A stretch of 64,000 nt of DNA, from sequence record PX393109.1; one strand, given 5' to 3'. Both the position numbers and the translations under genes were made by a program. The notes under the pieces are model-generated. The model had not been told where the DNA came from, did not search any database, and saw nothing but the letters and a program-made list of their open reading frames with translations. Shown piece after piece: positions 9,826 through 41,549 of the stretch (positions are counted from its first letter, which is position 1; every line of letters starts with the position of its first letter). The DNA comes from a phage.

Positions 9826-10188
9826 ATGACTTCTGCCGATTGCGTAGCTATGGTCGTCTACTATGAGGCCAGGGGAGAGTCGGAACGTGGGCAGTTAGCT
9901 GTAGCCCACGTGGTACTCAACCGAGCGAAGAAATACGGTATAAGCCCATGTAAGGTAGTTAAAAACAGGAATACCTTTCCGTGGTACCGTCACATCTCTT
10001 ACCAGAATATGAAAGATCCTAAATCTAAGGCATCTGCTATTCATATTGCGGCAAGAGTTAAATACAGTGAAGATCCCACATTCGGGGCTACTCACTTTCA
10101 TAATGTAAAGGTTAGGCCTAACTGGAAGGGCTATAGAATGACAGCCAGAATAGGCGACCACAAGTTCTATAAGAAGGTAAAGAAATGA
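9826..10188 (+). CDS. SleB/CwlJ-like cell-wall hydrolase domain protein
   Basis: YYEARGESERGQLAVAHVVLNR is the hallmark N-terminal motif of the Hydrolase_2 (SleB) family. Confidence 0.55.
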   Translation: MTSADCVAMVVYYEARGESERGQLAVAHVVLNRAKKYGISPCKVVKNRNTFPWYRHISYQNMKDPKSKASAIHIAARVKYSEDPTFGATHFHNVKVRPNWKGYRMTARIGDHKFYKKVKK

Positions 10189-10739
10189 CTTTGAGTAATA
10201 TGGATATAGACAACCTAATCGGTATGTTGGGAGGTACAGCAGTACTCGTTCTAACAGTCCGTCCTATCGACCAGGCTGAGAGCTATGATATAGTAGTCCG
10301 AGAGTCTAGCTTTGAATTCGAGCAAGCTCTTCGTCATGCTATGCACGATCTGACTATTACCAATAACGGTATTAAGCACCGTCTACTTAAAGTGTCGATA
10401 GGTATTAAATCGTCCGATGTATTCGCTAATCCTGATATCGTAAAGACCTGGGAAATCTGCGATAATCCACACACTCCTAAGATGAACGAAGCTATCGAGC
10501 GCGACCAGCAGTATCAAGAAGTCGTTCATCAGGCGGTAGAGCTAGTATTTTTACTTAGCAACTGCCAGACTATTTATTCAGCGTATGAAGGCAAGGTCGA
10601 TATGACTCAAGAGTCGGTTCGGGAGGCCGTTCGTGTATCTCTTTTCAATATCTTATCTGGTAAGTCAGAAACCAAGATGGATGCTGAAGTAGAGAAGGTA
10701 ATTAAACCATTCCGGGAATTATTTGTACGGAGTATCTGA
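10185..10739 (+). CDS. hypothetical protein
   Basis: 184-aa ORF overlapping upstream stop. Confidence 0.5.
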   Translation: MTLSNMDIDNLIGMLGGTAVLVLTVRPIDQAESYDIVVRESSFEFEQALRHAMHDLTITNNGIKHRLLKVSIGIKSSDVFANPDIVKTWEICDNPHTPKMNEAIERDQQYQEVVHQAVELVFLLSNCQTIYSAYEGKVDMTQESVREAVRVSLFNILSGKSETKMDAEVEKVIKPFRELFVRSI

Positions 10740-10981
10740 TGGACTTGATGAAATTAAACATCAAACTAGAGGGAGTGTGTAAGGCAGGGATAGTGAAGGT
10801 ATGCTATAACTGTAAAGAGCACCCCACTCTACGTCTTGACGAGAATAACCACTTACATCTGGAGTGTCCTAACTGTAAATGGGACGACCATGAAGTGGTT
10901 ACTGATTTAGATATGGAAGATGAAGCAGTTGCTGATCGTGAGCTGGGGCTTATGGTCGAGATGTGGAATCGTCATAACTAA
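10739..10981 (+). CDS. small zinc-ribbon protein
   Basis: CYNCKEH...CPNCKW. Confidence 0.5.
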   Translation: MDLMKLNIKLEGVCKAGIVKVCYNCKEHPTLRLDENNHLHLECPNCKWDDHEVVTDLDMEDEAVADRELGLMVEMWNRHN

Positions 10982-10993
10982 ATTAATCTACAC

Positions 10994-11035
10994 AAAAATG
11001 GGACTCACTCTATCACGAGTGAGTCCCATTTATTT
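10994..11035. terminator. bidirectional rho-independent terminator at early/late boundary
   Basis: perfect 15-bp stem AAATGGGACTCACTC/GAGTGAGTCCCATTT, 6-nt loop, A-run on left and T-rich on right; sits between convergent gene blocks. Confidence 0.8.
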
Positions 11036-11366
11036 AGTGCTTAAAGATGCCGATGATGGCGTCGTTAAACAATCCTACCAGTACACTAATAATTGCTAAC
11101 GCACCACTCCAGAATTTAATCTTGTCATTTACTTCCTTAATCTCCTTCCTTAGATCATCCTGCTCATCTTCAAGGTCAGAAATCTTCTTAGACATGAAAT
11201 TCTGTGCAACGACTAGCTCACGGATATCCGCTAATATCTCCGTCTGCTTACGAGAAGACTCCATAAGTTGATCAAGGATTACTCCCTGAAACTTCTGGTT
11301 AGATTCAAGTCTCGCTAGCCTATCGAGTTGGTGTCCACCGAACTCAGACTCTTCCCTCTCGCGCAT
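11034..11366 (-). CDS. coiled-coil protein with C-terminal TM helix (lysis-associated?)
   Basis: 110-aa ORF; C-terminal FWSGALAIISVLVGLF; position in lysis cassette. Confidence 0.35.
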   Translation of the reverse strand: MREREESEFGGHQLDRLARLESNQKFQGVILDQLMESSRKQTEILADIRELVVAQNFMSKKISDLEDEQDDLRKEIKEVNDKIKFWSGALAIISVLVGLFNDAIIGIFKH

Positions 11367-11376
11367 ACAAGATTCC

Positions 11377-11586
11377 TCACTTCTGATTGCTCTCTAGGCA
11401 ATCTATATAAGATACCAATTTAGCTAATTCAGCGTTAGGAATCCTGATCCCGTCTTTTTCCGCTATCGCTGCTATCGGTGGACGGTCGCACCTTACCTTC
11501 GGCGTCTGCATCTGTACCGGTAGGCTGTTGCAGCTTACCAAACTTAGACTCCCAAGCACCAGTAGGGTCATTTTTAATTTCTTCAT
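11377..11586 (-). CDS. outer-membrane lipoprotein, o-spanin candidate
   Basis: signal peptide with lipobox LVSC (MKKLKMTLLVLGSLSLVSC), small size, near endolysin. Confidence 0.5.
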   Translation of the reverse strand: MKKLKMTLLVLGSLSLVSCNSLPVQMQTPKVRCDRPPIAAIAEKDGIRIPNAELAKLVSYIDCLESNQK

Positions 11587-11665
11587 CTTTCTTCTCCCGA
11601 GAGCGAGTCTGCATAGCAGATACGAGTAGGGTAATAAGCTGAAGAATAAGAGTAAGAGCTTTCAT
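11435..11665 (-). CDS. N-terminal TM protein overlapping o-spanin in another frame (i-spanin-like, uncertain)
   Basis: MKALTLILQLITLLVSAM then charged domain; overlapped arrangement like Rz/Rz1 but short. Confidence 0.3.
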   Translation of the reverse strand: MKALTLILQLITLLVSAMQTRSREKKDEEIKNDPTGAWESKFGKLQQPTGTDADAEGKVRPSTDSSDSGKRRDQDS

Positions 11666-11668
11666 ACC

Positions 11669-12085
11669 TTACTCCTTTTTACCCTCTGGATTTTTGATCA
11701 GAGACTTACCGTAATCAAGGGCATCAATAGCCTGGGTAGCCTTACTCACTAGGTGCGGATCATCCTGAGTTTGGACTACGTCGGAAAGAACCTGCTTAGC
11801 TTTATCCATGGTCTGCACTTTCTGCTCATCCTGAGCGGCAGCTTTCTTATCTACCCTGGCAGCTGATTTAGGCAAGTTCAGAGCGACGAAGTTTAAGATG
11901 GACGATGCATAACCGAGGTATTTCTTAATTACCCCAATGTATTCGTCGTCTTTAGTATTAGGAGTGATCTTAGCGATCTTCTCCAGAGCTTGCACCAGCA
12001 CTGATGCGAAGCCGATGATGGCTAGTGCAAGAGCGATGTAATCATCGATCTTGGATCCATCAAGTACATCCAGGATATTGTCCAT
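11669..12085 (-). CDS. holin-like membrane protein
   Basis: two hydrophobic segments and a charged C-terminus, immediately downstream of endolysin. Confidence 0.4.
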   Translation of the reverse strand: MDNILDVLDGSKIDDYIALALAIIGFASVLVQALEKIAKITPNTKDDEYIGVIKKYLGYASSILNFVALNLPKSAARVDKKAAAQDEQKVQTMDKAKQVLSDVVQTQDDPHLVSKATQAIDALDYGKSLIKNPEGKKE

Positions 12086-12099
12086 TATTGATCACCATA

Positions 12100-12747
12100 T
12101 TAAAGAGTTAAAGTCTGATTTGCTCTGCGTAGTACAGGCAGTCGGTCAGGTACGGTCGCAGCAGACCCATTTATCTTCTGGGTTACTTTGGTGAATGCGT
12201 CCTGATCTGCTAATTGATTTAATTTATTTTTATCCCAGAACCACCCTGCAGTAAGCATGATCGTTTCGAAATCCGTCTCTACTAACTCTGGATCTTCTAC
12301 CAAACGGTCATCGCCAAAGATACTCAAAGAGGCCTCTCGATAGTTAGCTTTGCCAGTTAGATGCATAGCTCCACGGCCAATGTACTTATACCCATCTCCG
12401 CTAGCTGGAGTTCCGTTACCCATGCGATTAGCATACACCTGATTGGCTAACTTCTCAGGGTCGCGTATGTAAGCATTAGCATTAAGCTTACCAGGTTCAC
12501 CGCGAAGAGTAAATCTACTCGGCCACACAGCTACCAGACGAGACGCAGAGGTATAATACAGGGACTCCACAAACTTAGTGTAGTCCCGAGTTTCAAAGGC
12601 AGTCTGCGCCATAAAATAGCGCAGACGACGATTGGTATTGATACCGTAACGCTCGATAGTAGTATTAATGGCGGGTAGCAGCTTTTCCAGCACTTCCGTT
12701 GAAGTTGTCGGGAGGAACTTCTTCAGCTGGTCAAGTGTAACGCTCAT
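12100..12747 (-). CDS. endolysin, glycoside hydrolase family 19
   Basis: FMAQTAFET, YIGRGAMHLTGKANY, AGWFW: GH19 (class I chitinase-like) catalytic motifs. Confidence 0.85.
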   Translation of the reverse strand: MSVTLDQLKKFLPTTSTEVLEKLLPAINTTIERYGINTNRRLRYFMAQTAFETRDYTKFVESLYYTSASRLVAVWPSRFTLRGEPGKLNANAYIRDPEKLANQVYANRMGNGTPASGDGYKYIGRGAMHLTGKANYREASLSIFGDDRLVEDPELVETDFETIMLTAGWFWDKNKLNQLADQDAFTKVTQKINGSAATVPDRLPVLRRANQTLTL

Positions 12748-28929: not shown

Positions 28930-30423
28930 CTATAGATTGGCATCGCGATAGTAAGTATCATCGTGACTAATAACGTCGTTGTACAGAGGTTCGAATCCGT
29001 AACGAGTTACTTTCTCACCGCGATTATAAGTTCCGTCATGGAGAATAGTCCCATCCCGTTTCTCTAAGAGTCTTTCGGTCTTATGAGTGGTTAGGAACAT
29101 AGCTTCTCGGTAGCTAGACCAATGAGTATACCAATCGTATACTTTGATCTTTTTAATGAACTCCTGGTGAAGATAACGAGTACCATCCAGCAGGTAAGAC
29201 CCATTAATGAAGTCCATACCTTCGAAGTGTAGCCAGTCTATTTCTGGCAATCCGTAATAAGCCGTCCCGCTACGCTGAGTTTGGCCATCACGATGAGGCT
29301 GAATTACATACAGGCTATCGTATTCGAAGCTCTGATAGTTAGTTAAATCGTAACCCTCAGCGTAATTACCACCTTCATATCCGTAGTTTACTTGCTCTAC
29401 TCCCTTGGATAAGTGGTCTATCTTCCTATCCATATAATTCTCGAACCCAAACTCTGATAGGTCGATATCCAAGAACAGGAAGATCTCACGCAGCATAGAG
29501 GACTTAAACTCCAACCCAGCTACCAAGTCTGATAAGTCCAGTAAGGACTCAATCTCAGTAGTTCTGGAATCGGCGCTTAAATCTACATTAAACTTAGCCA
29601 ATGAGCTATAGAGTCTGCTGTGAGCAGTGTCGGTATTCTGGAGATCTAAGTATGTACCCATATCCAGAATAAGACCATTATCTAGCTTGATAGTTCTCCT
29701 ATCGAATACAGTCAGATAAGAGTTCATCAGACGATCTGAGAAGCGATCAATCAACACTTCAAGAGGTACTTCCATCTCCGACATAATATCGAGACAGAAT
29801 CGCAGCCATAGAGTATCCGAAATATCTGGGACTCGTATACCTACTGAACCATCCAGGATTGATGTGTCTAGCAACCAACTGGTGTCCAAGGAGGCGCTTC
29901 CGAGAGATTCAACGCCATCTGGAAGACAGTTAGCGATACCGGTAAGTCTTACGCATATCGGAAATACCTTACGCGACAGACGATCAATTAGCTTAATCTG
30001 CCGAGTAGACAAGATCACGTTCTTAGGAAGCAGGATGGTTGCCAGTGAGCAGCCTTCCGGAGTCTTCTGATACAAGATCTCTTCTATCTCTACATTTATC
30101 AGCTTAAAGATAAGATCAACCCCATCCTTCATACCCTTGTTATCAAGGATACTTGGGAGGAGTACAGATACTGAGTTTTGGTCTACCTCTGTAGTTATGA
30201 GATCTGCTAAGTCTGGTTGACCCAGTAGCTCCAGGATGTAAATCGGATCATAAGACGGTTTACTAGGATCATAAATCGCCGTATTTTTATCCATCTCTGG
30301 AAAGACAACAGTCTCTAGACCATGATCCAGCACCTGCGAGAAGAACTTATATAACTCGTTCCCTCTAAGGTTAGGAGAGAAGTAATCTAGAGTGTTGAAC
30401 TTAGCCATACTCATACCCCGCAT
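28930..30423 (-). CDS. baseplate protein (gpI/Mu gp48-like position)
   Basis: 497-aa ORF directly downstream of the J-like gene; gene order only. Confidence 0.45.
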   Translation of the reverse strand: MRGMSMAKFNTLDYFSPNLRGNELYKFFSQVLDHGLETVVFPEMDKNTAIYDPSKPSYDPIYILELLGQPDLADLITTEVDQNSVSVLLPSILDNKGMKDGVDLIFKLINVEIEEILYQKTPEGCSLATILLPKNVILSTRQIKLIDRLSRKVFPICVRLTGIANCLPDGVESLGSASLDTSWLLDTSILDGSVGIRVPDISDTLWLRFCLDIMSEMEVPLEVLIDRFSDRLMNSYLTVFDRRTIKLDNGLILDMGTYLDLQNTDTAHSRLYSSLAKFNVDLSADSRTTEIESLLDLSDLVAGLEFKSSMLREIFLFLDIDLSEFGFENYMDRKIDHLSKGVEQVNYGYEGGNYAEGYDLTNYQSFEYDSLYVIQPHRDGQTQRSGTAYYGLPEIDWLHFEGMDFINGSYLLDGTRYLHQEFIKKIKVYDWYTHWSSYREAMFLTTHKTERLLEKRDGTILHDGTYNRGEKVTRYGFEPLYNDVISHDDTYYRDANL

Positions 30424-31774
30424 TCTTATCTGTGCCTCCGGAATCTACCAGAGTCCGATCTTCCGTATAACTGATCTCCAGTTTGCGGAGCTTATAGTAC
30501 TCATTGTACTTAGCCTGTCGGTCAAGAATAGGCTGCTTAATGTAGATACGTCTAACTCGAAGAGACTCTGGCAGAGTCATATCGTTAACCGTAAAGAATG
30601 CACCGTTAGTCATGCACTTTTTATTGATGGTTTCACGAATCTTCTTGGTAATGGCATCCGTATCAGCTCCGGAGTCAATAACCACTCGCATCTTAACATC
30701 GACCATGATCCTTATAGGGTCTATAACATTTATGTTAGAACCCAGCATGGCGTACTGCAGCATATACTTCTCGAAATCTGCCTTCATAGCATCATTCATG
30801 GTTAATTCGTCGGCTCGTAGGTACGAGACGTTAACCGAGCAGCAAGAAGTAGTCGGAAGAGCAGCGTTAGCACTTATCACACCCTGATAAGAAGCACCTA
30901 TCGAAGCGTAATCGTCCAGAGTAACCAGACGTCTCTTGGCTGAATAATAACCAGGAGCAACAGCAACGATCTTCTCAGGACTATCAGGGTCTGACCCAGG
31001 GTATTTAACTTCAGATGAGTAACTCGTATTTTCAACGTATAACTGAATCTTGGTAGGATCCAGAGTTAACCCATCTAGTTTATCAGCTGGAGCAACGTAC
31101 TCTATCTTAAGTACCTGGTTAACAGCAGCCTTCCTGCCCAGTGACCCGTTCCCGAAGATAATGAATATTCCCGAGAAGTAAGAACGAATTAGGACATTGT
31201 CCGAATCCATATCTTCCGCAGCTGTGGTGTAGGAGATCTTCTCTCCATCGATATACAGGTTAACCAGATTATTATCAGGCTGAATAGGTACGTTGATACC
31301 TTTAAAATCCTTAGCATCGGTGATGGTTATCTCTTGAGAGACCCAATCACCGATAGCAACTACAATAGTATTCACGCCAACTTCTATTTGGGTAGAGTTG
31401 GTGAGAACCATGGAACGACCCATGTAGTTACCGATGGGATCTTCCTTATCCCAGTAAACTTGCTCCGTAGATGTGAACGTAATCTGGAGAAGAGGAGCAG
31501 ACTTACGATTATATACATAACCTAAGGCTGAACCAATCGACACGATGGTCGAAGTCATGTTGCCGAAATCCAGTAATGAATCTCGGCGGTTCATGTAGGC
31601 AGCATAGGCCAGGAATGCTGTAATACCAGCACCGGTATTAAGTACCGTTTCGCCAGCACCAGCCTCGTAGAAGTCCTTCCACTTAGTCTCATAATCTGGA
31701 AGAGACTTAATATAGTTCTCTAAATCCGTTCTGATCTGGTCGAAGGATAGAGAGGAATCTTGAATTATGTTCAT
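30401..31774 (-). CDS. baseplate wedge protein (gpJ-like)
   Basis: 457-aa ORF following the W/gp25-like gene; gene order. Confidence 0.5.
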   Translation of the reverse strand: MNIIQDSSLSFDQIRTDLENYIKSLPDYETKWKDFYEAGAGETVLNTGAGITAFLAYAAYMNRRDSLLDFGNMTSTIVSIGSALGYVYNRKSAPLLQITFTSTEQVYWDKEDPIGNYMGRSMVLTNSTQIEVGVNTIVVAIGDWVSQEITITDAKDFKGINVPIQPDNNLVNLYIDGEKISYTTAAEDMDSDNVLIRSYFSGIFIIFGNGSLGRKAAVNQVLKIEYVAPADKLDGLTLDPTKIQLYVENTSYSSEVKYPGSDPDSPEKIVAVAPGYYSAKRRLVTLDDYASIGASYQGVISANAALPTTSCCSVNVSYLRADELTMNDAMKADFEKYMLQYAMLGSNINVIDPIRIMVDVKMRVVIDSGADTDAITKKIRETINKKCMTNGAFFTVNDMTLPESLRVRRIYIKQPILDRQAKYNEYYKLRKLEISYTEDRTLVDSGGTDKNAGYEYG

Positions 31775-32142
31775 CGTTTCAGACCCACCTCGTAGTTAAA
31801 TTCTTGACCATCGATTCCTTTAACAGAGAACCATAAGTCTACCCAGAATATGTGATTATCCGGATCAGGAGTAACCTTAGTTTTACCTCGGTCTAATAGG
31901 GCTCTTGGCTCCCATCTCGTAACAGCGTCGACCACCTCTGCATAAACTTGCAGGCCAGTGATATCGTCGCATGGTTCCATGATGATATCTTCGAGATTAG
32001 AACCAAACTCCATATTAAACATTCTGGTACCTTTGCGAGTCTTCAGTACATTAACTATGGCCTGAAATACTGCATCACCATCCTTAAGAGAGTTACGCTT
32101 AAGGGTCTGGTCTATATCTCGATAAATTGGCTGAACCATCAT
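31771..32142 (-). CDS. baseplate wedge protein, gpW/gp25-like
   Basis: ORF track 31771..32274; likely start at MMVQPIY; size and FNMEFGSNLEDII region; follows spike gene. Confidence 0.55.
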   Translation of the reverse strand: MMVQPIYRDIDQTLKRNSLKDGDAVFQAIVNVLKTRKGTRMFNMEFGSNLEDIIMEPCDDITGLQVYAEVVDAVTRWEPRALLDRGKTKVTPDPDNHIFWVDLWFSVKGIDGQEFNYEVGLKR

Positions 32143-32146
32143 GAAC

Positions 32147-32806
32147 CTACTGTTTAGAGTTAGGCGGAGATGTACTACCACCACTATCGCCAACATGATC
32201 GTGACCGTTGTAGATAGCGCGATCTTCCGACATCTTGCGAACCTTGTCCTTGATCTCTCCTGTTCCATCGACAAGAGGAGTATCCAGTTTGATATGCTCT
32301 TTGGCGATTATCTCCAGAGCTTTAGCGATATCGACCTTACCTCCTCCTGGGGTGGTAAGAGTAAAATTAGCTTCTTGGTCAATATCGAACTGAAATCCAG
32401 AACAGTGCTTAAAATGAACTTCCTTAGACACTTTATCTATATAGAATACAGTGCCGGTAGAATCCTTAAATCCATACCTGTTGGGATAATTCTCTTTAAA
32501 CTCTTCCGGTACTTCCTTAGAGTGCCATCTACCAGTGTAGAATGGGAAATGCTGATCTCCTGTGGGGAACGAGACAGATACCTCAGTACCTACTTCTGGT
32601 ATTTCAACACGGTCAGATTCCCCATCCCCCAGGAATGCAGATGCAATAGGAATGGCCCATGGGATACCATCACCATCGAGTACCCCAGGAACCCTAACCT
32701 TTACTCTGCATTTTTGGGCAGGGTCGTTATTATCAACGACTACCCCCTTATGGATGGCCTTCAGAGGATCCTGACCATTGCGCATGAGGTCTATAATATT
32801 TATCAT
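32147..32806 (-). CDS. baseplate central spike (gpV-like)
   Basis: GVVVDNNDPAQKCRVKVRVPGVLDG...GTEVSVSF: OB-fold spike N-terminus. Confidence 0.6.
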   Translation of the reverse strand: MINIIDLMRNGQDPLKAIHKGVVVDNNDPAQKCRVKVRVPGVLDGDGIPWAIPIASAFLGDGESDRVEIPEVGTEVSVSFPTGDQHFPFYTGRWHSKEVPEEFKENYPNRYGFKDSTGTVFYIDKVSKEVHFKHCSGFQFDIDQEANFTLTTPGGGKVDIAKALEIIAKEHIKLDTPLVDGTGEIKDKVRKMSEDRAIYNGHDHVGDSGGSTSPPNSKQ

Positions 32807-32808
32807 AC

Positions 32809-33933
32809 TTAAACCTCTCTGGAATTATTCATCCCATCTCTGCACAACGTAAGGACGGTACATAAGTCTTTATTAGTGAAGATCCTACACACCTTCTGGG
32901 TTAGCCAAAGACCGGACGAATCCATATTGGCTTCCTTACGACGAGCATCAGAGTCTTCTTTAAGTAACACAGAATCGAGAACTCGGATATTGAAATAATA
33001 CCCAGTAATCTCGACCTTGGCTTTCATCATGGATAATCGGAGGAGGTTTCGGATGTTGTAATCGAAGGACGAATGGTAGGAAGAATGTACATTCTCATTA
33101 AGGATGGATACTCCTCCCAGACGCCGTCCCGTATCCGAGACTTCCTGATTACTCGATACTGATAGGATAGGGGATCCCTGAGGAGTGGAGTAGAACGACT
33201 GATTGTCGCTCTGATTGTGAACAATCCTGGATTTGGCATAGCCACCAAGAGCATTTACTGCTCCTGAATCGCTATAGATGTTAGGTGGCTTATCGTAATA
33301 AATAGCACCAGCATCTTTGGTCTCTAGGGAAGTTAACTTCCAGTTAGGATTATTCCTGTCCACTGCTGTAGAGATAGACCGGACCCTAAACAAACCATCA
33401 GTAGTAATACCTACCAATGGAGTATCGGAGTTTAAATTACTGTGAAGCCATAACTGGTTAACGAAATCTCGATCGTTAATGTTATTCTGCAGCCAGTTCA
33501 TCTTGTTATCAGATGCTGGGCAGTTGAAGTCTGCCTTAAAATACTTAGAGACTATAGACTTCATCACCTCTATTGAGGTACCAGTATGACTTGCTGCCTG
33601 GGAATCTATTCTGTACGGAACAGCTCCGAAGACTCCCAGTACTCTGAGGATTTGAGACCCTACTCCGAAATTAGTTTTCTGACGTTTTAGGATGGCTAAC
33701 TTAACGTTAATCATGCTAGCTTCGTTACGACCGAAACTGGCATAAATGAAATTACCTTCCTTGAGTACTGAGACTATTTGCTCATCTCGGCACTCGAAAA
33801 CTAGCTCATAAGTAGGCATAACGTTACCAGCCTCTTCGATGATCTTAAACTGGATAAGATCTCTAGGGCCGATGAAGTCTTTAAAGTCGCCAATCTTAAA
33901 CATGGCAACATATTGACCTTTTACACCTATCAT
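32809..33933 (-). CDS. baseplate hub/tail protein (gpD-like position)
   Basis: 374-aa ORF between tape-measure-proximal genes and the spike; gene order. Confidence 0.4.
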   Translation of the reverse strand: MIGVKGQYVAMFKIGDFKDFIGPRDLIQFKIIEEAGNVMPTYELVFECRDEQIVSVLKEGNFIYASFGRNEASMINVKLAILKRQKTNFGVGSQILRVLGVFGAVPYRIDSQAASHTGTSIEVMKSIVSKYFKADFNCPASDNKMNWLQNNINDRDFVNQLWLHSNLNSDTPLVGITTDGLFRVRSISTAVDRNNPNWKLTSLETKDAGAIYYDKPPNIYSDSGAVNALGGYAKSRIVHNQSDNQSFYSTPQGSPILSVSSNQEVSDTGRRLGGVSILNENVHSSYHSSFDYNIRNLLRLSMMKAKVEITGYYFNIRVLDSVLLKEDSDARRKEANMDSSGLWLTQKVCRIFTNKDLCTVLTLCRDGMNNSREV

Positions 33934-34307
33934 GATAAGCTCTCCACTTTAGCAGTAGCGGAGACAGATGACACATCTGGAGTCAGCGAGAAGTAAATAT
34001 CTTCCAGATCGTCAATCAGTGGATATCTCAGAACTAAGTTCATGGTTAAGTCCCATGGGAACCGCAACTCATTCACCATCATAAGAATCCACCAGTACTG
34101 AGTCAATCCAGCACCATAGATTCGTTCTGAGAGTAGGTCGGGTCTACCCACTTCTGAGATCACTGTATATGTACCATACCGAGAAAGATTCTTCAGTTTG
34201 TACATAAATTCAGAATCAACAGAGTCCAAGATAGACCCATTCTCATTAGACATGAATTTAGAGATATCATACCTCTGAGCCAATTTGTCTGAGTCTATCT
34301 TGAACAT
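33930..34307 (-). CDS. hypothetical tail/baseplate protein
   Basis: 125-aa ORF, translationally coupled. Confidence 0.4.
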   Translation of the reverse strand: MFKIDSDKLAQRYDISKFMSNENGSILDSVDSEFMYKLKNLSRYGTYTVISEVGRPDLLSERIYGAGLTQYWWILMMVNELRFPWDLTMNLVLRYPLIDDLEDIYFSLTPDVSSVSATAKVESLS

Positions 34308-34314
34308 AAGTCAC

Positions 34315-34950
34315 CTATTTAATAAACCAGGATCTTACATGATCCTCATCCGGCAGATATGCTGGGGTGAAGGACAGTTGCACCTTAGCCCATAACGGCT
34401 GACCAGTAGAGCGAGCTATTTCCTTGCTGTACTGAGTCGACACGTTCACAAGTATAAGGCTAGTTGCCCTGAACCACTGGCCGATCTGCAGAGTCCATGT
34501 ACCTGTTATAGCGGTATCCGGATTGAAATTACCAGTCGCCTTGGTTACAGAGTACCCATTAGGAGCTCCGAACATAAGTCCGTTCTTGGTAGTGTATGTT
34601 ACCCCAGCCAGGAACTCTTTAACTATGTCCAAAGGTCTGATGGATGGATTGTATGAGATAATTGTCAGAGGCACTGGAAATACTGGTTTGGTACTTCCTC
34701 GCCACTGAGCGATAGTTTCACGAATATTTCGTATAACCATCTGATCCATACCCACGGTATTAGCTACCGCGTTAGCACCTCGCGTTAAGGTACCAGCCAT
34801 CAAGTTTTCACCAGATTCAAACAGAGACGAAATATCGAATCCGAAATCCGTCTCTATAAGACCTACAGTACGGGACTTGTTACCAGGATGGACTAAGACA
34901 ATTCTAGCATCTGGATTCGCGTATAGCTTCTCGATGTCTAATACTGCCAT
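34315..34950 (-). CDS. tail protein downstream of tape measure
   Basis: 211-aa ORF, start coupled to tape-measure stop. Confidence 0.4.
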   Translation of the reverse strand: MAVLDIEKLYANPDARIVLVHPGNKSRTVGLIETDFGFDISSLFESGENLMAGTLTRGANAVANTVGMDQMVIRNIRETIAQWRGSTKPVFPVPLTIISYNPSIRPLDIVKEFLAGVTYTTKNGLMFGAPNGYSVTKATGNFNPDTAITGTWTLQIGQWFRATSLILVNVSTQYSKEIARSTGQPLWAKVQLSFTPAYLPDEDHVRSWFIK

Positions 34951-37808
34951 TATGAGAACACCATCTTGTTGAAGAACGCCAGACCATAGTCATCAATAGT
35001 GTCACTCTTATCCGTAACCACTGAAGGTACGTTAGGAGTTATAGCAGCAGGATCCTGGTTCCTGGTGGAACCAGCAGCCATAGCGGCCAATTGATTATTC
35101 TGATCTTGACGTTGTTTATTAACATCGTCTGTAGGGGTAGGAGCCTTAGGGACCTCGAGAGGTACGTTCTGAGCAACCTGGGTAGCTCCTGACTTAGATG
35201 CCTCAGCATCAGAACCATTCTTCATCCATTCTGCAGTATATGCAGCACGGTCTGCTAACCCATTATACCCACCATTGACCGCCTTAGTTGCTACTTCAAC
35301 AGTAGCTCCTTTCTTCTCCATCTGTGGTCGCACACGATCTTTCCAATATGCAACCGCTAACTTATTGGCGATTTCAGGATCTTCAGCCATCTCAGGATTA
35401 TTTTCGAGATCTATACCCAGCATCTTACCATACTTCTGGTAATTAGCCCTACCAGTAAGCTGTATCCAGCCACGACCCTTATAACGAACCCCGTCCCCAG
35501 GATTTACGTTACCCAGGTCTTTACGACCCTCGTACGCTTTACCAGAGGCTAGTTCTTTATTATAACGGAAGTTACCAGACTCATGCTGAACCTGGCCCAT
35601 GAATAGAGCCAGTTCTTTATCGTCGATTCCCTGCTGCTTAGCATACTCTGCCAGACTATTCTTACGCTCCGTCTGCTCCTTAGAGCTGGGGAGGTATCGA
35701 GAGGCATTCTGCATAGCGGACTGTAGGATACTACCACCGGCATCAACAGCACTGTCATAACCATTGGATATTATTCCACCAACAGTTCTTGCGCCATTAA
35801 CTATGGAGGCACCTGCTCCGATAATCCCATTGGATACCGCAACAGCTCCTTTCTTAAGTCCTTTAAAGAAGTCACCGACTACCGGTAGGTCTGATAGCCA
35901 ATCAAATAGGCCACCAATACCTTCACCTATAGACTTCATAGGATCATTTATAAATTCTGTAACCAAGTTAGATAATTCACTGATTTCTCCGGTTATGGAC
36001 TTGGTTACCGAGTCGTAACTATCGGAGAACCACTTAGAGGTATCGGAGACGGACTTGGAAAGCCAGTCGGATGCATTCTTATACATCCCTGAGAATGACG
36101 CCGTTAGGTTATTTGCAATATTAACCGCACCTTCGTATGTCTTCTGTACAGTATCTACAGCAGACTTAGCGACATTCACTACATCCTCTGGAGAGGCTAA
36201 CCCGAAAGTTAACCCAGAGGCTAGTGAGGCTGCCGATGAGCCAGCCTTAGCCCAGTTATCATCGCTGCCGAATAGCTCCTTAGCCTTATCTCCATCCCAT
36301 CCAGAGACAGCATCGTAAACTCCCATACCAGCAGTTACGGCTAACCCAATTCCTGGAATGAACTTAGCTCCTCTAAGGCCAGCTCTCAGAAGCGCACCAC
36401 CTCCACGAGCAGCGCCTCTCGCAAGTCCTCCGGTGGCAGCTGCGTCGACTGCTCTGCCTGCCATCCTGCCAAGTCTACCGAACCTGCTGAGTCCACGACC
36501 GAGACGAGTCCTGCCTCTTCTTCCCCTACTTCTTCTACCTCTGCGGCCACGCTCATCGCCACCGCCGATAAGATCATCAAAGATAGAATCAGCAGCACCC
36601 TGCTTCTGTTCGTTAGCGAAAGGATCAATTTCTTCATGGTTAGCTCTTCCATTAGCTCTGGTTACCGATACCAGTTGCTCATCGATATCCACCAAAGTAG
36701 ACTGACCATTAATTAACTGAGTCTGCTTACGGGACAGTTCGTCCTGGCCAGACCTAGTCTCATTAATTAACTCTCGAATGCTGTTGTTAATCTCGTCCAG
36801 CTTCTGATTCTGCTCCTCTTCTGGAGTAGGTCCGAAACTGGGTTTTGGATTTACGGTAGCATCTGGAGTAGTAATCTCGACCTTAGTCTCTTTACCGTCG
36901 ACTTTAGCAGAGGCCTCAGTGGAAGATTCTCCATCGGGTTTATTTTCTGATTTAAGAATCTCTCGAGATATGGCCTTTAATTCTTCGTCAGTAGTATCCG
37001 GTTCGTCTTTCCTTTTACGGAACATGGATGATATTGCACCATCCAATTTATCAGATATACCGAATACACTATCCAGGTCCCCTAAACCTAAGGCACCTAG
37101 ACCAGATGAGAGTGCTTCCTTGCGGACAGAACCTACGGAAAACTGCGATGGGGTATTAAGGAACGAATCCCTTAAATTACGGCCAGTTTGACGTATGTTA
37201 AATCTGTCAAGAGTATCCCTCTCATCCTTACTCCTGTTCGTTAAGTTAGCAACCTTTACCGTATCAGAATATTTAATCTTTACGTTCTGATTGGCTAACT
37301 CAGCTCTAGCTTGCTCAATGATGCGGTTATTCTTCCGCATATTGATAGTACTAAGTGAGGAATTGGATACGTTAAGTACTCGAAGTAACCCACTCAGTTC
37401 TCTCATAGCAGTCATACGGACGCCACGAGTAAGTCTAGAGTCATTTAATATTGACTGATAGGTGTCGAGTAAAGATTCTGCAGCGATGGCCTTTTGATCC
37501 TCGGCAGTAGCGTACATATCCGCAACCTGGCCTACTTTATCTCTTAAGGAGATCAGCTGCTCAGCTTCCTGGGTAGAGAACTTAGCCCTACCGTAAAACT
37601 TACCCATCAGTGTATTCAGGGTCTTAACTTCATCAGAGCTAAGACCGACATCTACATCGTTGCTGGAGAGTATCTTAACAGTAGAACGAATCCCGATAAG
37701 ATCTTCTTCCAGTTTAGACCTGGCATGCTCGTAATCAGAGGCATCCTTAATCGGATCGGTAGCTTCTGTACGAGCAATCCCAGATATGCCTCTAACTATG
37801 CTAACCAT
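34950..37808 (-). CDS. tail tape measure protein with embedded GH19 lysozyme-like domain
   Basis: 952 aa; coiled-coil N-terminus, Arg/Gly-rich tract, then FMGQVQHESGNF...RYKGRGWIQLTGRANY (GH19 motifs) near the C-terminus. Confidence 0.75.
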   Translation of the reverse strand: MVSIVRGISGIARTEATDPIKDASDYEHARSKLEEDLIGIRSTVKILSSNDVDVGLSSDEVKTLNTLMGKFYGRAKFSTQEAEQLISLRDKVGQVADMYATAEDQKAIAAESLLDTYQSILNDSRLTRGVRMTAMRELSGLLRVLNVSNSSLSTINMRKNNRIIEQARAELANQNVKIKYSDTVKVANLTNRSKDERDTLDRFNIRQTGRNLRDSFLNTPSQFSVGSVRKEALSSGLGALGLGDLDSVFGISDKLDGAISSMFRKRKDEPDTTDEELKAISREILKSENKPDGESSTEASAKVDGKETKVEITTPDATVNPKPSFGPTPEEEQNQKLDEINNSIRELINETRSGQDELSRKQTQLINGQSTLVDIDEQLVSVTRANGRANHEEIDPFANEQKQGAADSIFDDLIGGGDERGRRGRRSRGRRGRTRLGRGLSRFGRLGRMAGRAVDAAATGGLARGAARGGGALLRAGLRGAKFIPGIGLAVTAGMGVYDAVSGWDGDKAKELFGSDDNWAKAGSSAASLASGLTFGLASPEDVVNVAKSAVDTVQKTYEGAVNIANNLTASFSGMYKNASDWLSKSVSDTSKWFSDSYDSVTKSITGEISELSNLVTEFINDPMKSIGEGIGGLFDWLSDLPVVGDFFKGLKKGAVAVSNGIIGAGASIVNGARTVGGIISNGYDSAVDAGGSILQSAMQNASRYLPSSKEQTERKNSLAEYAKQQGIDDKELALFMGQVQHESGNFRYNKELASGKAYEGRKDLGNVNPGDGVRYKGRGWIQLTGRANYQKYGKMLGIDLENNPEMAEDPEIANKLAVAYWKDRVRPQMEKKGATVEVATKAVNGGYNGLADRAAYTAEWMKNGSDAEASKSGATQVAQNVPLEVPKAPTPTDDVNKQRQDQNNQLAAMAAGSTRNQDPAAITPNVPSVVTDKSDTIDDYGLAFFNKMVFS

Positions 37809-37886: not shown

Positions 37887-38717
37887 TCAACCATGTTTCT
37901 TCTTGCCAAAAGAGATGAGATGTTTAATAGAGACTTCATCTCTACGAAACGGTTCCGCCAGTTGGCTTACCCCCTTGACCGTTACTTCGGCCTTATGTCC
38001 ACACTTAGGGCAAGCACATTCAATATACTGGCGACCAAAGTCAAGAATCTCGTCGATCATCTGAAGAGCCTGAATTATATCAGAGTCTTTATTCTCGAGG
38101 ATAATCTTCTTGGCTTCTTCGTAGGTCTTATTACGGACCATCTTAGGCAACTCTACTTCCGCAGAGCGCTCGGGAGAGATACGACGGCACACCATCATAT
38201 CATCAACCGTAAACGGAGTGAATTCCAGAGTATCCCCATTAGGAAGATCGAGGATAATAGGCAATTCTTCTATTTCGGTTAAGTCCTGGAAGATAATCTC
38301 GCTTAAGCTACGGCTAGAGGAGATATATTCCTGGCAACCTGGGCATGTGTAGGAAAGACGCCACTCGTTCTTAGAGAACGTGGTTAACTTACGGAGTACC
38401 ATAATAAGGAGGAGATCTTCGAATACGATCTGTCCCTTAGTTATACCGCGAGTTTCGATGTTGGCGAAGGTCAGTTCGATCTTCTGCTCAAGAGTCATCT
38501 TACCGTGGGACCATCTTTCTACTTCGCCGAAGCTGTAGGGCTTATACGAAATAGTGGTACCAGCAGGGTAAGCTAAGAACCGAGACGGAAGCTGTTCCGC
38601 GGTAATCAGAATACCAGTAGAGTCTGACGTAGCCGGATCGACTACGGGAGTCGCAGCAACGACTTCCTCGGAAGCCTTCTGGGACGCTAATTCTTCACGA
38701 GATACAGTTTCCATCAT
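37887..38717 (-). CDS. zinc-ribbon protein in tail-assembly position
   Basis: YTCPGCQEY and ECACPKCGH pairs; located between tube/chaperone and tape measure. Confidence 0.4.
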   Translation of the reverse strand: MMETVSREELASQKASEEVVAATPVVDPATSDSTGILITAEQLPSRFLAYPAGTTISYKPYSFGEVERWSHGKMTLEQKIELTFANIETRGITKGQIVFEDLLLIMVLRKLTTFSKNEWRLSYTCPGCQEYISSSRSLSEIIFQDLTEIEELPIILDLPNGDTLEFTPFTVDDMMVCRRISPERSAEVELPKMVRNKTYEEAKKIILENKDSDIIQALQMIDEILDFGRQYIECACPKCGHKAEVTVKGVSQLAEPFRRDEVSIKHLISFGKKKHG

Positions 38718-38723
38718 TGATCC

Positions 38724-39200
38724 TTAGTTCTTACCTGCTATGATGAAGTTCATTGTGAAGTTGACTTGATCCGAATTGGACGAGCCACTTCTGTTTACCG
38801 CACCGTCTGGGAATACATAGAATGTCTCTAACAACACTCTCTGTCTTTGACGATTTAAGGTAGCTACTATAACTGGTCTAACGCACTCAGCTAAAGTAAG
38901 TACTCCGGAAGATTCCTGGTATATTTCATCGAACCAATGCTGATACCACTCATGGAGTGTCATCTTCTCATCGTCCAATACCTGGAATGTTAAATCCGGA
39001 GATCCCTTACTCTGGGGGAACTTAAAATCTCGCATGTAAAACTGCTGAGACATAGCTAACCCAGTTACTGAGTTCAACTGATAATCCGTAGCAGGAAACC
39101 AGTCGGAGAATGGGGACGGAGCATCAGGGAATCTTACATCCCACAAGTGCATTTGTCCCCATTCGATAGACCGTACTTGTTGAACATTATTCAAAAACAC
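38724..39200 (-). CDS. tail assembly protein (chaperone position)
   Basis: 158-aa ORF between tube and tape measure. Confidence 0.4.
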   Translation of the reverse strand: MFLNNVQQVRSIEWGQMHLWDVRFPDAPSPFSDWFPATDYQLNSVTGLAMSQQFYMRDFKFPQSKGSPDLTFQVLDDEKMTLHEWYQHWFDEIYQESSGVLTLAECVRPVIVATLNRQRQRVLLETFYVFPDGAVNRSGSSNSDQVNFTMNFIIAGKN

Positions 39201-39214
39201 GGTCTACCTCTCTA

Positions 39215-39739
39215 TTAAAGAGCTCCTTCCTTGAAGTCGTCGTAGGACAACGTCAGGACTGGTTTCAGTACGTCAGCCGAAGTAGAGCCCAGCTGGCCAC
39301 CAGCATCATAATCTTCCAGGAATACACCTTCGAGATCATAATACCAGATACCGACTTTCTGACGATTCAGGCGTTTAAGACGCAGTTTCGCCTTAACATC
39401 CTGAGTACGGCCAGCAACACCAGTACCAGTCTGGTAGCACATTTCACGCCAGTTAGCAATCTGCTGAGCGATTGCGTTATCCACAGTTTCGTTACAGGTT
39501 AGTGTAAGAGTCTGAGGAGGAGCGTAAATCCCAGGCTGTTTAACCGGCACCAGACCACGAATCTGGATAGATGTGGAAGTACCAGTCTTTTTCGGAATAT
39601 CCGAAGATTCGCAACGCAGGAAGACTGCATCCGACAGATTATTCAGGCCGGAAGGTACAGTGATGAACTGTAATTCCCAGTCGACGATCGTGGCGAAGTC
39701 TCCCAGATTGCGGACTTGATCCAAAGTAATAGGCGGCAT
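39215..39739 (-). CDS. tail tube protein
   Basis: ORF track 39215..39802; likely start at MPPITLDQ just after sheath stop; size and position. Confidence 0.6.
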   Translation of the reverse strand: MPPITLDQVRNLGDFATIVDWELQFITVPSGLNNLSDAVFLRCESSDIPKKTGTSTSIQIRGLVPVKQPGIYAPPQTLTLTCNETVDNAIAQQIANWREMCYQTGTGVAGRTQDVKAKLRLKRLNRQKVGIWYYDLEGVFLEDYDAGGQLGSTSADVLKPVLTLSYDDFKEGAL

Positions 39740-39749
39740 CCTGATCTCC

Positions 39750-41549
39750 TTACAGTGCTTCCGCGGCCAGATCGAAGTCCACACTGTTATTGGTAATACC
39801 AATAGTCAGAGGGATGTATTCGGTCGAGTTATTCGGGCAAACCAGCAGGCTTACTCGCAGGATATGGTTATCCACATCGCTTGCAGTGTTGTTGGTATCA
39901 TCACAGATAGTGACGTACTTAGTAACACCGCGACGAGCCATGATCGAATCCATATAGGTATCGACCATACCTTTAGCCAGTGCACGAGTATCCGCATCGT
40001 TGAATTCGAACAGGAAGTTCGCCAACAGTTTACGGATAGCCGGACCGATGGTAACCAGCAGGAGTCGGACGTTCAGGCGATCCAGCATGGAGCTAGCGTA
40101 CTGAAGAGTCTTCTGACCCCAGATCTTGATACCTTCGCCTTCTTCGAATACGATAGGGTTAATACCCGCATCATACAGAAGATCCTGGTCAGAGTCGAGC
40201 AGGTGTACGTACGTATCCAGCACGTTAACCACACCACGCTTGTTACCACCCACTGGGTACCAGATCTCGAAGTTAGACGCAGTATCGAAGATAGCCTTCG
40301 TCGCAACGCCGTCCGGAGATACCCACAGATTACGGTCGTTGTAACGATCGTAGATCTTAACGTGAGGTGCATACATGGCAGCATAACTGGTATCCCAGTT
40401 AGTGTCGTGCTTACGATAGTTAACCATAGACTGGGCAGGAGATACGCCACCCTGTGCAGTCAGAGGAACCGAGGTAATACCGACGCAGTCAGCACGGGAC
40501 TCTGCCAGTGCGATGATCGCTGAACCGTATGCCTGAGAAGTACGACCACCGTTCATGATCACTTTAATAGCGAATTCACGAGGGTTGTTGAGCTTATTCA
40601 GAGCACGAATACAGTCTCCATCGGTAACCGGAGATCCGTTAGAACCACCACCCAATGCTGCTGGGATAACGATGTCAGCCACCGGATCAGTGTTCAGAGG
40701 GTTATTAAACACCTGAGCATAGATATTGTCGGCAGTAACATCTTCGATGTACAGAGACTTATTGTCCTGATCCTTAAGACCATTGATCTTAGAACCGATT
40801 ACGTCCAGCACCGGATTAACCAGATCGTCCGCTTTAAATACCCGCAGATTGAAGGTATTGGGGATCTTGGTGTACTCCACAGCCGGAGATACGATAACTC
40901 CGGTAGCATCGGACACGGTCAATGTAACAGGAGTAGATGCGGTAGCATTAGCTCGGCTGGTTGCCAGCTTAATACCACCAGTAGCAGGTACTGCGAAGTA
41001 AGTGGTGTAATCATTAACTTCAGCAGGCAAGTTAGAGCCAGCCAGTTTAACCGGATAACCAGCACCCCATTTCTGGGTAGACTTAAGAATACCACCAGTT
41101 ACGGCGACAGTCTCAGTAGCTTTATAGCCGAGTACCTGGAAGCGGAGTTCATCACCCCAAAGACCCTGGTTAGCTGCTGCGATCAGGAAGGACTCGTCGT
41201 CCATATCCACTGCAGACGGATCTTTAATATCACTGGCAGTAACGACGGTACCGTCTTTATTTACCAGAGCGCCTGAATAGCGAGCATCAGCAGAAGCAGC
41301 ACGAACTACCACCACGCTGGAGTATTTCTCCAACACGGTTAGCGCAGAGAAGTGCGCAGTAGACATACCGATGTCGATTTGCTCATTTGGCGTAAAGATT
41401 TTCAGGAAGTTGGGAGCATTGCCAGGCACGATCGGTTTCTCTACCGGACCTTTAACAGCATCAACTACGATAGCCGCATAAATAGTCTCAGTGGCAGGAA
41501 CGTACGCACTCAGATCGCGCTCCGCATAGCTTACGCGTGGTGCAGACAT
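39750..41549 (-). CDS. contractile tail sheath protein
   Basis: 599 aa; C-terminal GINPIVFEEGEGIKIWGQKTLQ matches the conserved sheath C-terminal motif. Confidence 0.8.
   Translation of the reverse strand: MSAPRVSYAERDLSAYVPATETIYAAIVVDAVKGPVEKPIVPGNAPNFLKIFTPNEQIDIGMSTAHFSALTVLEKYSSVVVVRAASADARYSGALVNKDGTVVTASDIKDPSAVDMDDESFLIAAANQGLWGDELRFQVLGYKATETVAVTGGILKSTQKWGAGYPVKLAGSNLPAEVNDYTTYFAVPATGGIKLATSRANATASTPVTLTVSDATGVIVSPAVEYTKIPNTFNLRVFKADDLVNPVLDVIGSKINGLKDQDNKSLYIEDVTADNIYAQVFNNPLNTDPVADIVIPAALGGGSNGSPVTDGDCIRALNKLNNPREFAIKVIMNGGRTSQAYGSAIIALAESRADCVGITSVPLTAQGGVSPAQSMVNYRKHDTNWDTSYAAMYAPHVKIYDRYNDRNLWVSPDGVATKAIFDTASNFEIWYPVGGNKRGVVNVLDTYVHLLDSDQDLLYDAGINPIVFEEGEGIKIWGQKTLQYASSMLDRLNVRLLLVTIGPAIRKLLANFLFEFNDADTRALAKGMVDTYMDSIMARRGVTKYVTICDDTNNTASDVDNHILRVSLLVCPNNSTEYIPLTIGITNNSVDFDLAAEAL

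Follow-up and report, generated by a model that had tools for sequence, protein, structure and literature searches.

A GH19 lysozyme-like domain inside the predicted tail tape measure of an IME392-type Escherichia coli myovirus

The tail module and its 952-aa protein

The DNA analysed here is a stretch of 64,000 nucleotides from phage record PX393109.1, hereafter the window, to which all positions refer. Our subject is one gene of its tail module (34950..37808, minus strand, stop codon included), an open reading frame (ORF) whose product of 952 amino acids (aa) occupies the tape-measure slot and carries an internal cassette of glycoside hydrolase family 19 (GH19). The initial annotation had placed a protein of this length at this locus, and the ORF is indeed present, its ATG preceded by a GGAG-like ribosome-binding site. 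The window is 99% identical at the protein level to Escherichia phage vB_EcoM_IME392 (MH719082, 116 kb), published by Hu et al. in 2021 in Arch Virol, and 91% identical to phage EP_H11. The 952-aa protein itself shares 99.1% identity with its IME392 counterpart AXY86112, which is labelled “putative glycoside hydrolase” in GenBank; the EP_H11 counterpart is labelled there “membrane-bound lytic murein transglycosylase D precursor”. Across records, the depositors' labels are glycoside hydrolase, MltD or endolysin, and a tape-measure label is absent from the tail-module stretches of the IME392, EP_H11 and related records that we examined. A paper from 2025 places IME392 among phages with a DNA polymerase resembling that of YerA41-type hypermodified-thymidine phages (PMC12686479).

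The genes around the 952-aa protein are all encoded on the minus strand, in the order sheath, tube, 158 aa, 276 aa, 952 aa, 211 aa, gpX-like, hub, gpV, gp25/W and gp6/J. The sheath protein (599 aa, 39750..41549) matches phrog_23 (E = 2.2e-62) and Pfam Phage_sheath_1, and the tube protein (195 aa, 39215..39802) matches the tail tube family phrog_4542 (E = 2.5e-5). Downstream of the 952-aa gene lie six baseplate genes (30401..34950), whose products are a weakly PmgG-like protein (211 aa, 34315-34950), a LysM/gpX-like protein (125 aa, 33930-34307; phrog_15542), a protein that is hub-like by its position and matches unnamed PHROGs only (374 aa), a gpV/VgrG-type central spike with an OB-fold (219 aa, 32147-32806; PF04717, E = 3e-12), a gp25/W protein (167 aa; PF04965, E = 3.2e-8) and a gp6/J-like protein (457 aa; phrog_219); phrog_261 was matched among these genes as well. 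The spike carries the OB domain alone and is devoid of a lysozyme domain.

The same gene order was found in EP_H11, Vibrio phage Va2, Acinetobacter phage Ab1-TPeters and metagenomic contigs L010-L012, and it is also that of P2 and the R-type pyocins. Between the tube and baseplate genes, the 952-aa ORF is the only long one. Moreover, several of the 40 nearest relatives of the protein's body match tape-measure PHROGs (58, 167, 4200, 1272, 1535 and 305; E as low as 1e-21), and one of the body relatives also matches Pfam Tape_meas_lam_C of lambda. Mainly on the strength of this synteny, we regard the 952-aa protein as very probably the tail tape measure. The initial annotation had called it so; its place within a contractile-tail module agrees with that name, while the direct sequence support turned out to be weak.

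The two genes between tube and 952-aa gene (37887..39200) are conserved in size and position in the relatives, namely in Va2, Ab1-TPeters and the metagenomic contigs. The product of 158 aa had no matches. The product of 276 aa, encoded directly upstream of the 952-aa gene (37887-38717) and containing two CxxC pairs, is weakly similar to T4 gp26 (phrog_150, E = 3.8e-6; PF12322, 23.5 bits, just below the cut-off of 24.5 bits), and possibly serves the tape measure as a chaperone. In Ab1-TPeters (L009), automated annotation labels the counterpart of the 125-aa protein (10957-11340) “tail sheath” and that of the 211-aa protein (10317-10949) “PmgG-like head morphogenesis protein”; since the genes sit in a baseplate context, both labels are probably misleading.

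Two GH19 domains in one phage

The GH19 catalytic domain of the 952-aa protein is of the compact subtype and spans aa 716-862 (35223..35663, minus strand). The motifs FMGQVQHESGNF (aa 736-747) and RYKGRGWIQLTGRANY (aa 775-790) lie within it; these, as well as the Arg/Gly tract and the endolysin motifs discussed below, are all where the initial annotation had read them. The GH19 profile match on which that annotation had made its proposal depend was found in this segment: the protein scores 37.2 bits against PF00182 (E = 3.7e-9, aa 730-826), above the gathering score of 25.5 bits. In a sequence search of the PDB, the top solved relatives of the domain were phage GH19 endolysins, the best being PWe2 (9ms7, E = 4.4e-21). 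An AlphaFold2 (AF2) model of aa 700-952, built on an alignment of 120 sequences, has a predicted local distance difference test score (pLDDT) above 90 over aa ~710-865, and when it was compared with the PDB by Foldseek, the top 50 matches were all GH19. The best of them was again 9ms7, with a target-normalised TM-score of 0.79 and a root-mean-square deviation of 2.3 A; the SPN1S endolysin (4ok7) and plant and bacterial chitinases were also among the matches.

The predicted catalytic pair, E743 (codon 35580-35582) and E752 (codon 35553-35555; together 35553..35582, minus strand), is spaced by nine residues within an H-E...E motif and accompanied by the Q-x-T and N...R residues. The 120-sequence alignment shows no variation at E743, E752, Q783, T785, N845 and R854, and at least 90% of its sequences keep H742. 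Residues H742, E743, E752, Q783, T785, N845 and R854 correspond, with matching spacings, to H50, E51, E60, Q127, T129, N188 and R197 of PaGH19Lys, a proven muramidase that has no chitinase activity and whose E60Q mutant is inactive (PMC12329726). Overall, the GH19 domain that the initial annotation had recognised is borne out by Pfam, by the PDB match, by the AF2 model, by Foldseek and by an intact active-site set, and it is complete and looks catalytically competent. Its position had been described as near the C-terminus. The domain does come late in the protein, but it is internal, being followed by a linker of ~70 aa and a conserved C-terminal peptide.

When we sought a compositional signal of recent horizontal insertion, the GC content proved to be 46.3% in the domain versus 46.5% in the remainder of the gene. 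For want of a discontinuity we rejected such an insertion, and the even GC content suggests that the GH19 fusion is old.

The second GH19 protein of the window, of 215 aa and of the PaGH19Lys/SPN1S subtype, is encoded at 12100..12747 on the minus strand, with the motifs FMAQTAFET at aa 45-53 and YIGRGAMHLTGKANY at aa 122-136. It exceeds the gathering score of PF00182 (33.8 bits, E = 4e-8), matches the endolysin family phrog_181 (E = 8.4e-60) and aligns over its full length with PaGH19Lys (PDB 9EOI, E = 2.8e-31), its E52 and E61 falling on E51 and E60 of that enzyme. The rest of the lysis cassette (11377..12085, minus strand) consists of a holin-like protein of 138 aa (11669-12085) and two overlapping ORFs of 76 and 69 aa, which form a spanin-like pair, the latter having the lipobox LSLVSC typical of an o-spanin. 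A Pfam and profile scan of these cassette neighbours gave no matches, and the holin and spanin labels were drawn only from sequence features and from position. By its matches and its setting, the 215-aa protein is the predicted soluble endolysin of this holin/spanin cassette. Two further genes may be mentioned here. The lysis region (11034-12085, minus strand) also encodes a coiled-coil protein of 110 aa whose C-terminal part contains a hydrophobic segment. A third peptidoglycan-hydrolase gene, a SleB-type ORF of 120 aa (9826-10188, plus strand; Hydrolase_2, PF07486, E = 2.5e-20), lies on the strand opposite to the structural and lysis genes.

A direct BLASTP comparison of the 952-aa protein with the endolysin gave 33% identity over 106 aa (E = 4e-9), which indicates that their GH19 resemblance reflects true but distant homology. 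Their identity was ranked in an alignment of 140 GH19 domains, so that each was compared with 139 others. Seen from the tape-measure domain, the endolysin comes last (29% identity, rank 139 of 139); seen from the endolysin, the tape-measure domain holds rank 133 of 139. Identity to the tape-measure domain is 60-76% for the GH19 domains of homologous tape-measure-slot proteins; the closest free-standing domains among the matches listed in a domain-only search, which omitted the protein's own cluster, belong to endolysin-type proteins of 190-250 aa with 55-62% identity. The endolysin, in addition, has an insertion of ~36 aa after the second glutamate, while the tape-measure domain is of the compact PWe2/JWF subtype. 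The identity ranks and the differing subtypes led us to reject a recent duplication of the endolysin as the origin of the tape-measure domain. With only 29% identity and different GH19 subtypes, the two domains were most likely acquired separately and did not arise by duplication within the genome.

Thus, the word “paralogous”, which the initial annotation had applied to the two domains, holds as far as distant homology goes; it overstates their relationship, given that they are not each other's closest relatives and do not belong to the same subclade. The same annotation had divided the two proteins into a soluble lysin and a virion-borne one. Since the second GH19 protein lies in a genuine lysis cassette, this division is the best reading of the data, with the location in the virion and the activity there being predicted. 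A domain type shared by endolysins and tape measures is known from mycobacteriophages (PMC3314691).

Architecture of the protein and its relatives

Outside the enzyme, the protein can be divided into several regions, all on the minus strand. The N-terminal body (aa 1-400, 36609..37808) is mostly helical by prediction and is the putative ruler. The relatives P0125, P0127, P0129 and P0133 align to it at 24-35% identity, and P0128 matches aa 63-595 of the protein with 28% identity in BLASTP. An Arg/Gly tract, RGRRGRRSRGRRGRTRLGRG, follows at aa 420-439 (36492..36551) and is conserved in EP_H11, P0002-P0004 and Va2. Upstream of the core described below, its strict Arg/Gly form is shared by 13 of 73 members of the family, where ~0.1 would be expected, and many other members have a Lys/Gly version. 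The low-complexity tract of the initial annotation is therefore real, but it is no isolated oddity, representing an extreme form of the basic Gly-rich tract of the family. As it adjoins the hydrophobic core, one might speculate about a role at the membrane interface or in contact with nucleic acid. An antisense ORF of 115 aa (36358-36705, plus strand) lies within the Arg/Gly/Ala-rich part of the gene; because the local GC content is raised to 56-58% at the tract, we take this ORF to be most probably a by-product of the local composition rather than a gene.

The best-conserved part of the body is a hydrophobic, Gly-rich core with the pattern AKFIPGxG...DAxxGWD...SGLTFGL (aa 480-542, 36183..36371), which an iterated hidden Markov model detects in 78 of 88 family members and which matches phrog_26249, a family with no assigned function (E = 1.3e-13). 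Its most hydrophobic 19-mer has a mean Kyte-Doolittle value of 1.41. A second Gly-rich hydrophobic stretch (aa 641-680, 35769..35888) has a mean of 0.89 over the block of 40 aa, and its best 19-mer scores 1.31. The GH19 domain comes next, and behind it there is a low-complexity linker with abundant Pro, Gln, Ala and Thr (aa 863-930, 35019..35222), mostly of low pLDDT except for one helix at aa ~892-912 and variable among relatives in both sequence and length. The protein ends in a conserved C-terminal peptide, ...TIDDYGLAFFNKMVFS (aa 931-952, 34953..35018), a putative spike or hub anchor, of which the last 17 aa are IDDYGLAFFNKMVFS. Searched for as [IVL][DNH]D[YLIVFM][GSN][LIV] within the last 30 aa, its motif was present in 23 of 88 family members, as against 2 of 2105 control windows, and its presence was independent of lysin type. 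The lysin is thus placed as an internal cassette between a conserved body and a conserved C-terminal peptide, to which it is joined through a variable linker. We also considered that a free GH19 protein might be produced from an internal translation start, and rejected it: among the in-frame ATG, GTG and TTG codons at aa 560-745, none has an upstream ribosome-binding site.

The family was delineated by an exhaustive HMMER search with the body only (aa 1-715, the GH19 domain being left out), which recovered 82 representative clusters. A full-length homolog search had yielded just four close relatives, its candidate list having probably been taken up by low-complexity words, and tblastn of the body against annotated phages, affected by low-complexity masking, gave three records, Ab1-TPeters among them. 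Pfam scans of 81 body relatives revealed a diverse set of enzymes: the VgrG3-like_C lysozyme in 12, GH19 in eight, VanY in five, Phage_lysozyme, Phage_lysozyme2 and GH46 in two each, and Glucosaminidase, NlpC/P60, SLT, Amidase_2 and M15_3 in one each. The lysin slot lies at aa ~630-840 in close relatives, and those relatives in which Pfam detected no enzyme still match lysin PHROGs at the slot position. P0128, with a VgrG3-like module, occupies exactly the same genomic slot as the 952-aa gene. Judged from these comparisons, the family is a scaffold with interchangeable lysin cassettes between the hydrophobic core and the C-terminal peptide.

According to the initial annotation, GH19 is uncommon for a tape measure. 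This agrees with the literature that we searched, in which we found no published GH19 tape measure (which does not prove that there is none), but within its own family GH19 is the second commonest module. Across 1,259 phage records with GH19 matches, we sampled the labels of 60. Nearly all were endolysin or lysin A, none was a tape-measure label, and in a few jumbo phages GH19 resides in giant proteins labelled “tail fiber protein”. Two proteins of ~2,200 aa, from PhiEaH1 (2222 aa, L003 1463-8131) and FLC9 (2239 aa, L007 2454-9173), have GH19 near the C-terminus and are named “tail fiber protein” or “hypothetical protein” in RefSeq; possibly they correspond to phiKZ gp181 but bear another enzyme. 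In the T4-like cyanophage Synechococcus phage S-B68, a two-enzyme baseplate/tail protein of 839 aa with Peptidase_M15_3 and GH19 (L005 5192-7711) adjoins a gp26-like gene and is unrelated to the body of the IME392 family. A further GH19 protein, of 498 aa, was found in Motura. All four were rejected as family members, being devoid of the core and the C-terminal motif, and the lack of these elements indicates that virion proteins acquired GH19 on several independent occasions.

Proposed role, alternatives and known systems

Taken together, these observations make it likely that the 952-aa protein is a modular tape measure of an E. coli myovirus of the IME392 type, composed of a helical body, an Arg/Gly tract, a core, the GH19 domain, a linker and a C-terminal peptide of ~17 aa. 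For such a protein we infer the location in the virion, the enzymatic activity, the order of exit from the tail and the role at the membrane, and the following scenario can be proposed. While the tail is being assembled, the body would fill the lumen of the tube and the C-terminal peptide would dock on the hub or the gpV-like spike. The docking is suggested by analogy with the Pakpunavirus myovirus P7-1, in which cryo-electron microscopy revealed that C-terminal tape-measure helices cork the tail spike (PMC13338283). Upon sheath contraction and loss of the spike, the C-terminal end would leave the tube first and enter the periplasm, where the GH19 domain could cut MurNAc-GlcNAc bonds (linking N-acetylmuramic acid to N-acetylglucosamine) locally and so open the peptidoglycan. 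As the spike has no lysozyme domain, it is the tape measure that would supply the muralytic activity of the virion. Finally, the basic tract and the hydrophobic core might engage the inner membrane and aid the passage of DNA, as has been proposed for other tape measures.

Several observations weigh against this scenario. The direct match of the 952-aa protein to tape-measure phrog_167 is marginal (E = 0.0011), no tape-measure family was returned by its Pfam scan, and no solved tape-measure chain was retrieved from the PDB by the body on its own or by the family profile, the body resembling only generic helical proteins in the profile search (E > 0.05). The full-length AF2 model, built on an alignment of four sequences, is mostly helical by DSSP, yet with a mean pLDDT of 37.5 it is unreliable, and the helical-rod character of the body is for this reason suggestive only. 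The hydrophobic segments stay under the classical transmembrane threshold even at their best 19-mer of 1.41, and the lumen of the tube would offer little room for three or six folded GH19 domains of ~16 kDa each. The missing Pfam and PDB similarity would fit the alternative that the protein is a pilot protein, that is, an ejected lysin associated with the tail lumen or the baseplate, with the length of the tail being set by something else. The near relatives, moreover, span 633-1302 aa despite having sheath proteins of similar size, and the depositors chose enzyme names for the gene. We nevertheless find such a pilot protein unlikely, because the 952-aa ORF is the sole long one in the interval from tube to baseplate genes, because the relatives match tape-measure PHROGs, and because the distance from the N-terminus to the slot is fairly constant in close relatives (~630-720 aa), the variation being mostly downstream of the slot.

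Another possibility is that the protein is a tape measure whose GH19 domain plays no enzymatic part at entry, either serving as a non-catalytic peptidoglycan-binding anchor or acting, in unassembled copies, as a late auxiliary endolysin. A dedicated endolysin and the SleB-like hydrolase are at the phage's disposal already, and the lysin motif of the TM4 tape measure was reportedly found by Piuri and Hatfull in 2006 to be dispensable in exponential-phase cells. On the other hand, the whole active-site set is invariant, which argues against lost catalysis; the gene has neither a signal sequence nor an internal start with a ribosome-binding site; and the relatives retain an enzyme, though of varying type, in this slot, from which selection for catalysis at that place within the virion can be deduced. 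We therefore give this possibility little chance. As for the substrate, the name of the Pfam family, “Chitinase class I”, and the chitinases of plants and bacteria among the fold matches might suggest a true chitinase acting on a polysaccharide other than peptidoglycan. This we consider highly improbable: the nearest relatives by both sequence and fold are phage endolysins, PaGH19Lys, the bacterial/phage-type enzyme that has been characterised, acts as a muramidase and not on chitin, and the host, E. coli, has no chitin.

If the modular tape measure is accepted, its biology extends the established theme of lysin-bearing tape measures and is neither a new principle nor a new kind of system. For annotation, it corrects a recurrent mislabelling of these genes as “glycoside hydrolase”, “MltD precursor” or “endolysin”. 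In the IME392-type myovirus lineage, the wall-cutting activity seems to be on the tape-measure-slot protein and not on the spike as in T4. Virion-borne lysins must act on intact cells from outside the cytoplasm, and the exchangeable cassettes (GH19, VgrG3-like, VanY, GH24, SLT and others) offer a panel for enzybiotic mining as well as for studying how folded enzymes pass through a tail tube. It is tempting to go further and to suppose, tentatively, that the proteins of IME392, Va2 and Ab1-TPeters, together with ~80 metagenomic clusters, represent an undescribed class of contractile-tail tape measures that act as cassette carriers. This class would be defined by a basic/Gly tract, a possibly membrane-active KFIPGxG...SGLTFGL core, a hot-swappable peptidoglycan-hydrolase slot sharing its modules with endolysins and with spikes of type VI secretion systems (T6SS), and a spike-docking peptide IDDxG(L/I)xxFN. 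If this is true, a single myovirus protein would join the functions of ruler, wall cutter and membrane channel, and the engineering of virion-borne lysins would have a natural scaffold in this class. The interest of the finding is modest unless the family proves to be such a distinct multifunctional class.

Among contractile systems, T4 gp5, a baseplate hub protein and tail lysozyme, is comparable in that muralytic activity would be supplied from the tip of the tail, but in T4 the lysozyme is part of the spike protein, whereas here the enzyme is on the tape-measure-slot protein. In phiKZ, gp181 supplies muralytic activity at the tip of the contractile tail. The commonest alternative cassette of the family (12 of 81) is the lysozyme-like domain known from the C-terminus of T6SS VgrG3 (PF21277), which also rides on a contractile injection machine; it belongs to another enzyme family and is fused to the spike in T6SS, while the 952-aa protein does not contain PF21277 and would be a protein of the lumen, not of the spike. 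The P7-1 protein is, like ours, a myovirus tape measure and has a putative lysozyme-like segment upstream of its cork helices. That segment is short and Cpl-7-like, in contrast to the full GH19 domain found here, and the P7-1 tape measure has no detectable sequence similarity to the body of the 952-aa protein or to the family profile.

With the endolysins PWe2 (9ms7), SPN1S (4ok7) and PaGH19Lys (9EOI), the domain shares the fold and the active-site residues; those enzymes are free, soluble and released with the help of a holin, whereas ours lies within a structural protein of 952 aa, at aa 716-862. Lysins on tape measures are themselves well established, as exemplified by mycobacteriophage TM4 with its Rpf-like motif, by T5 Pb2 with a C-terminal metallopeptidase and a fusogenic region, by Staphylococcus phage phiIPLA35 with a muramidase, and by enterococcal phages with a lytic transglycosylase (PMC10194240). 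In common with them, the 952-aa protein has a muralytic module towards its C-terminal part and hydrophobic segments, and it presumably acts locally at DNA entry. These phages are siphoviruses, and their modules are of the Rpf/transglycosylase, M23 or other muramidase types. Ours is a GH19 domain of predicted activity in a contractile-tailed phage, and it differs from theirs in being an internal cassette that is followed by a conserved C-terminal peptide.

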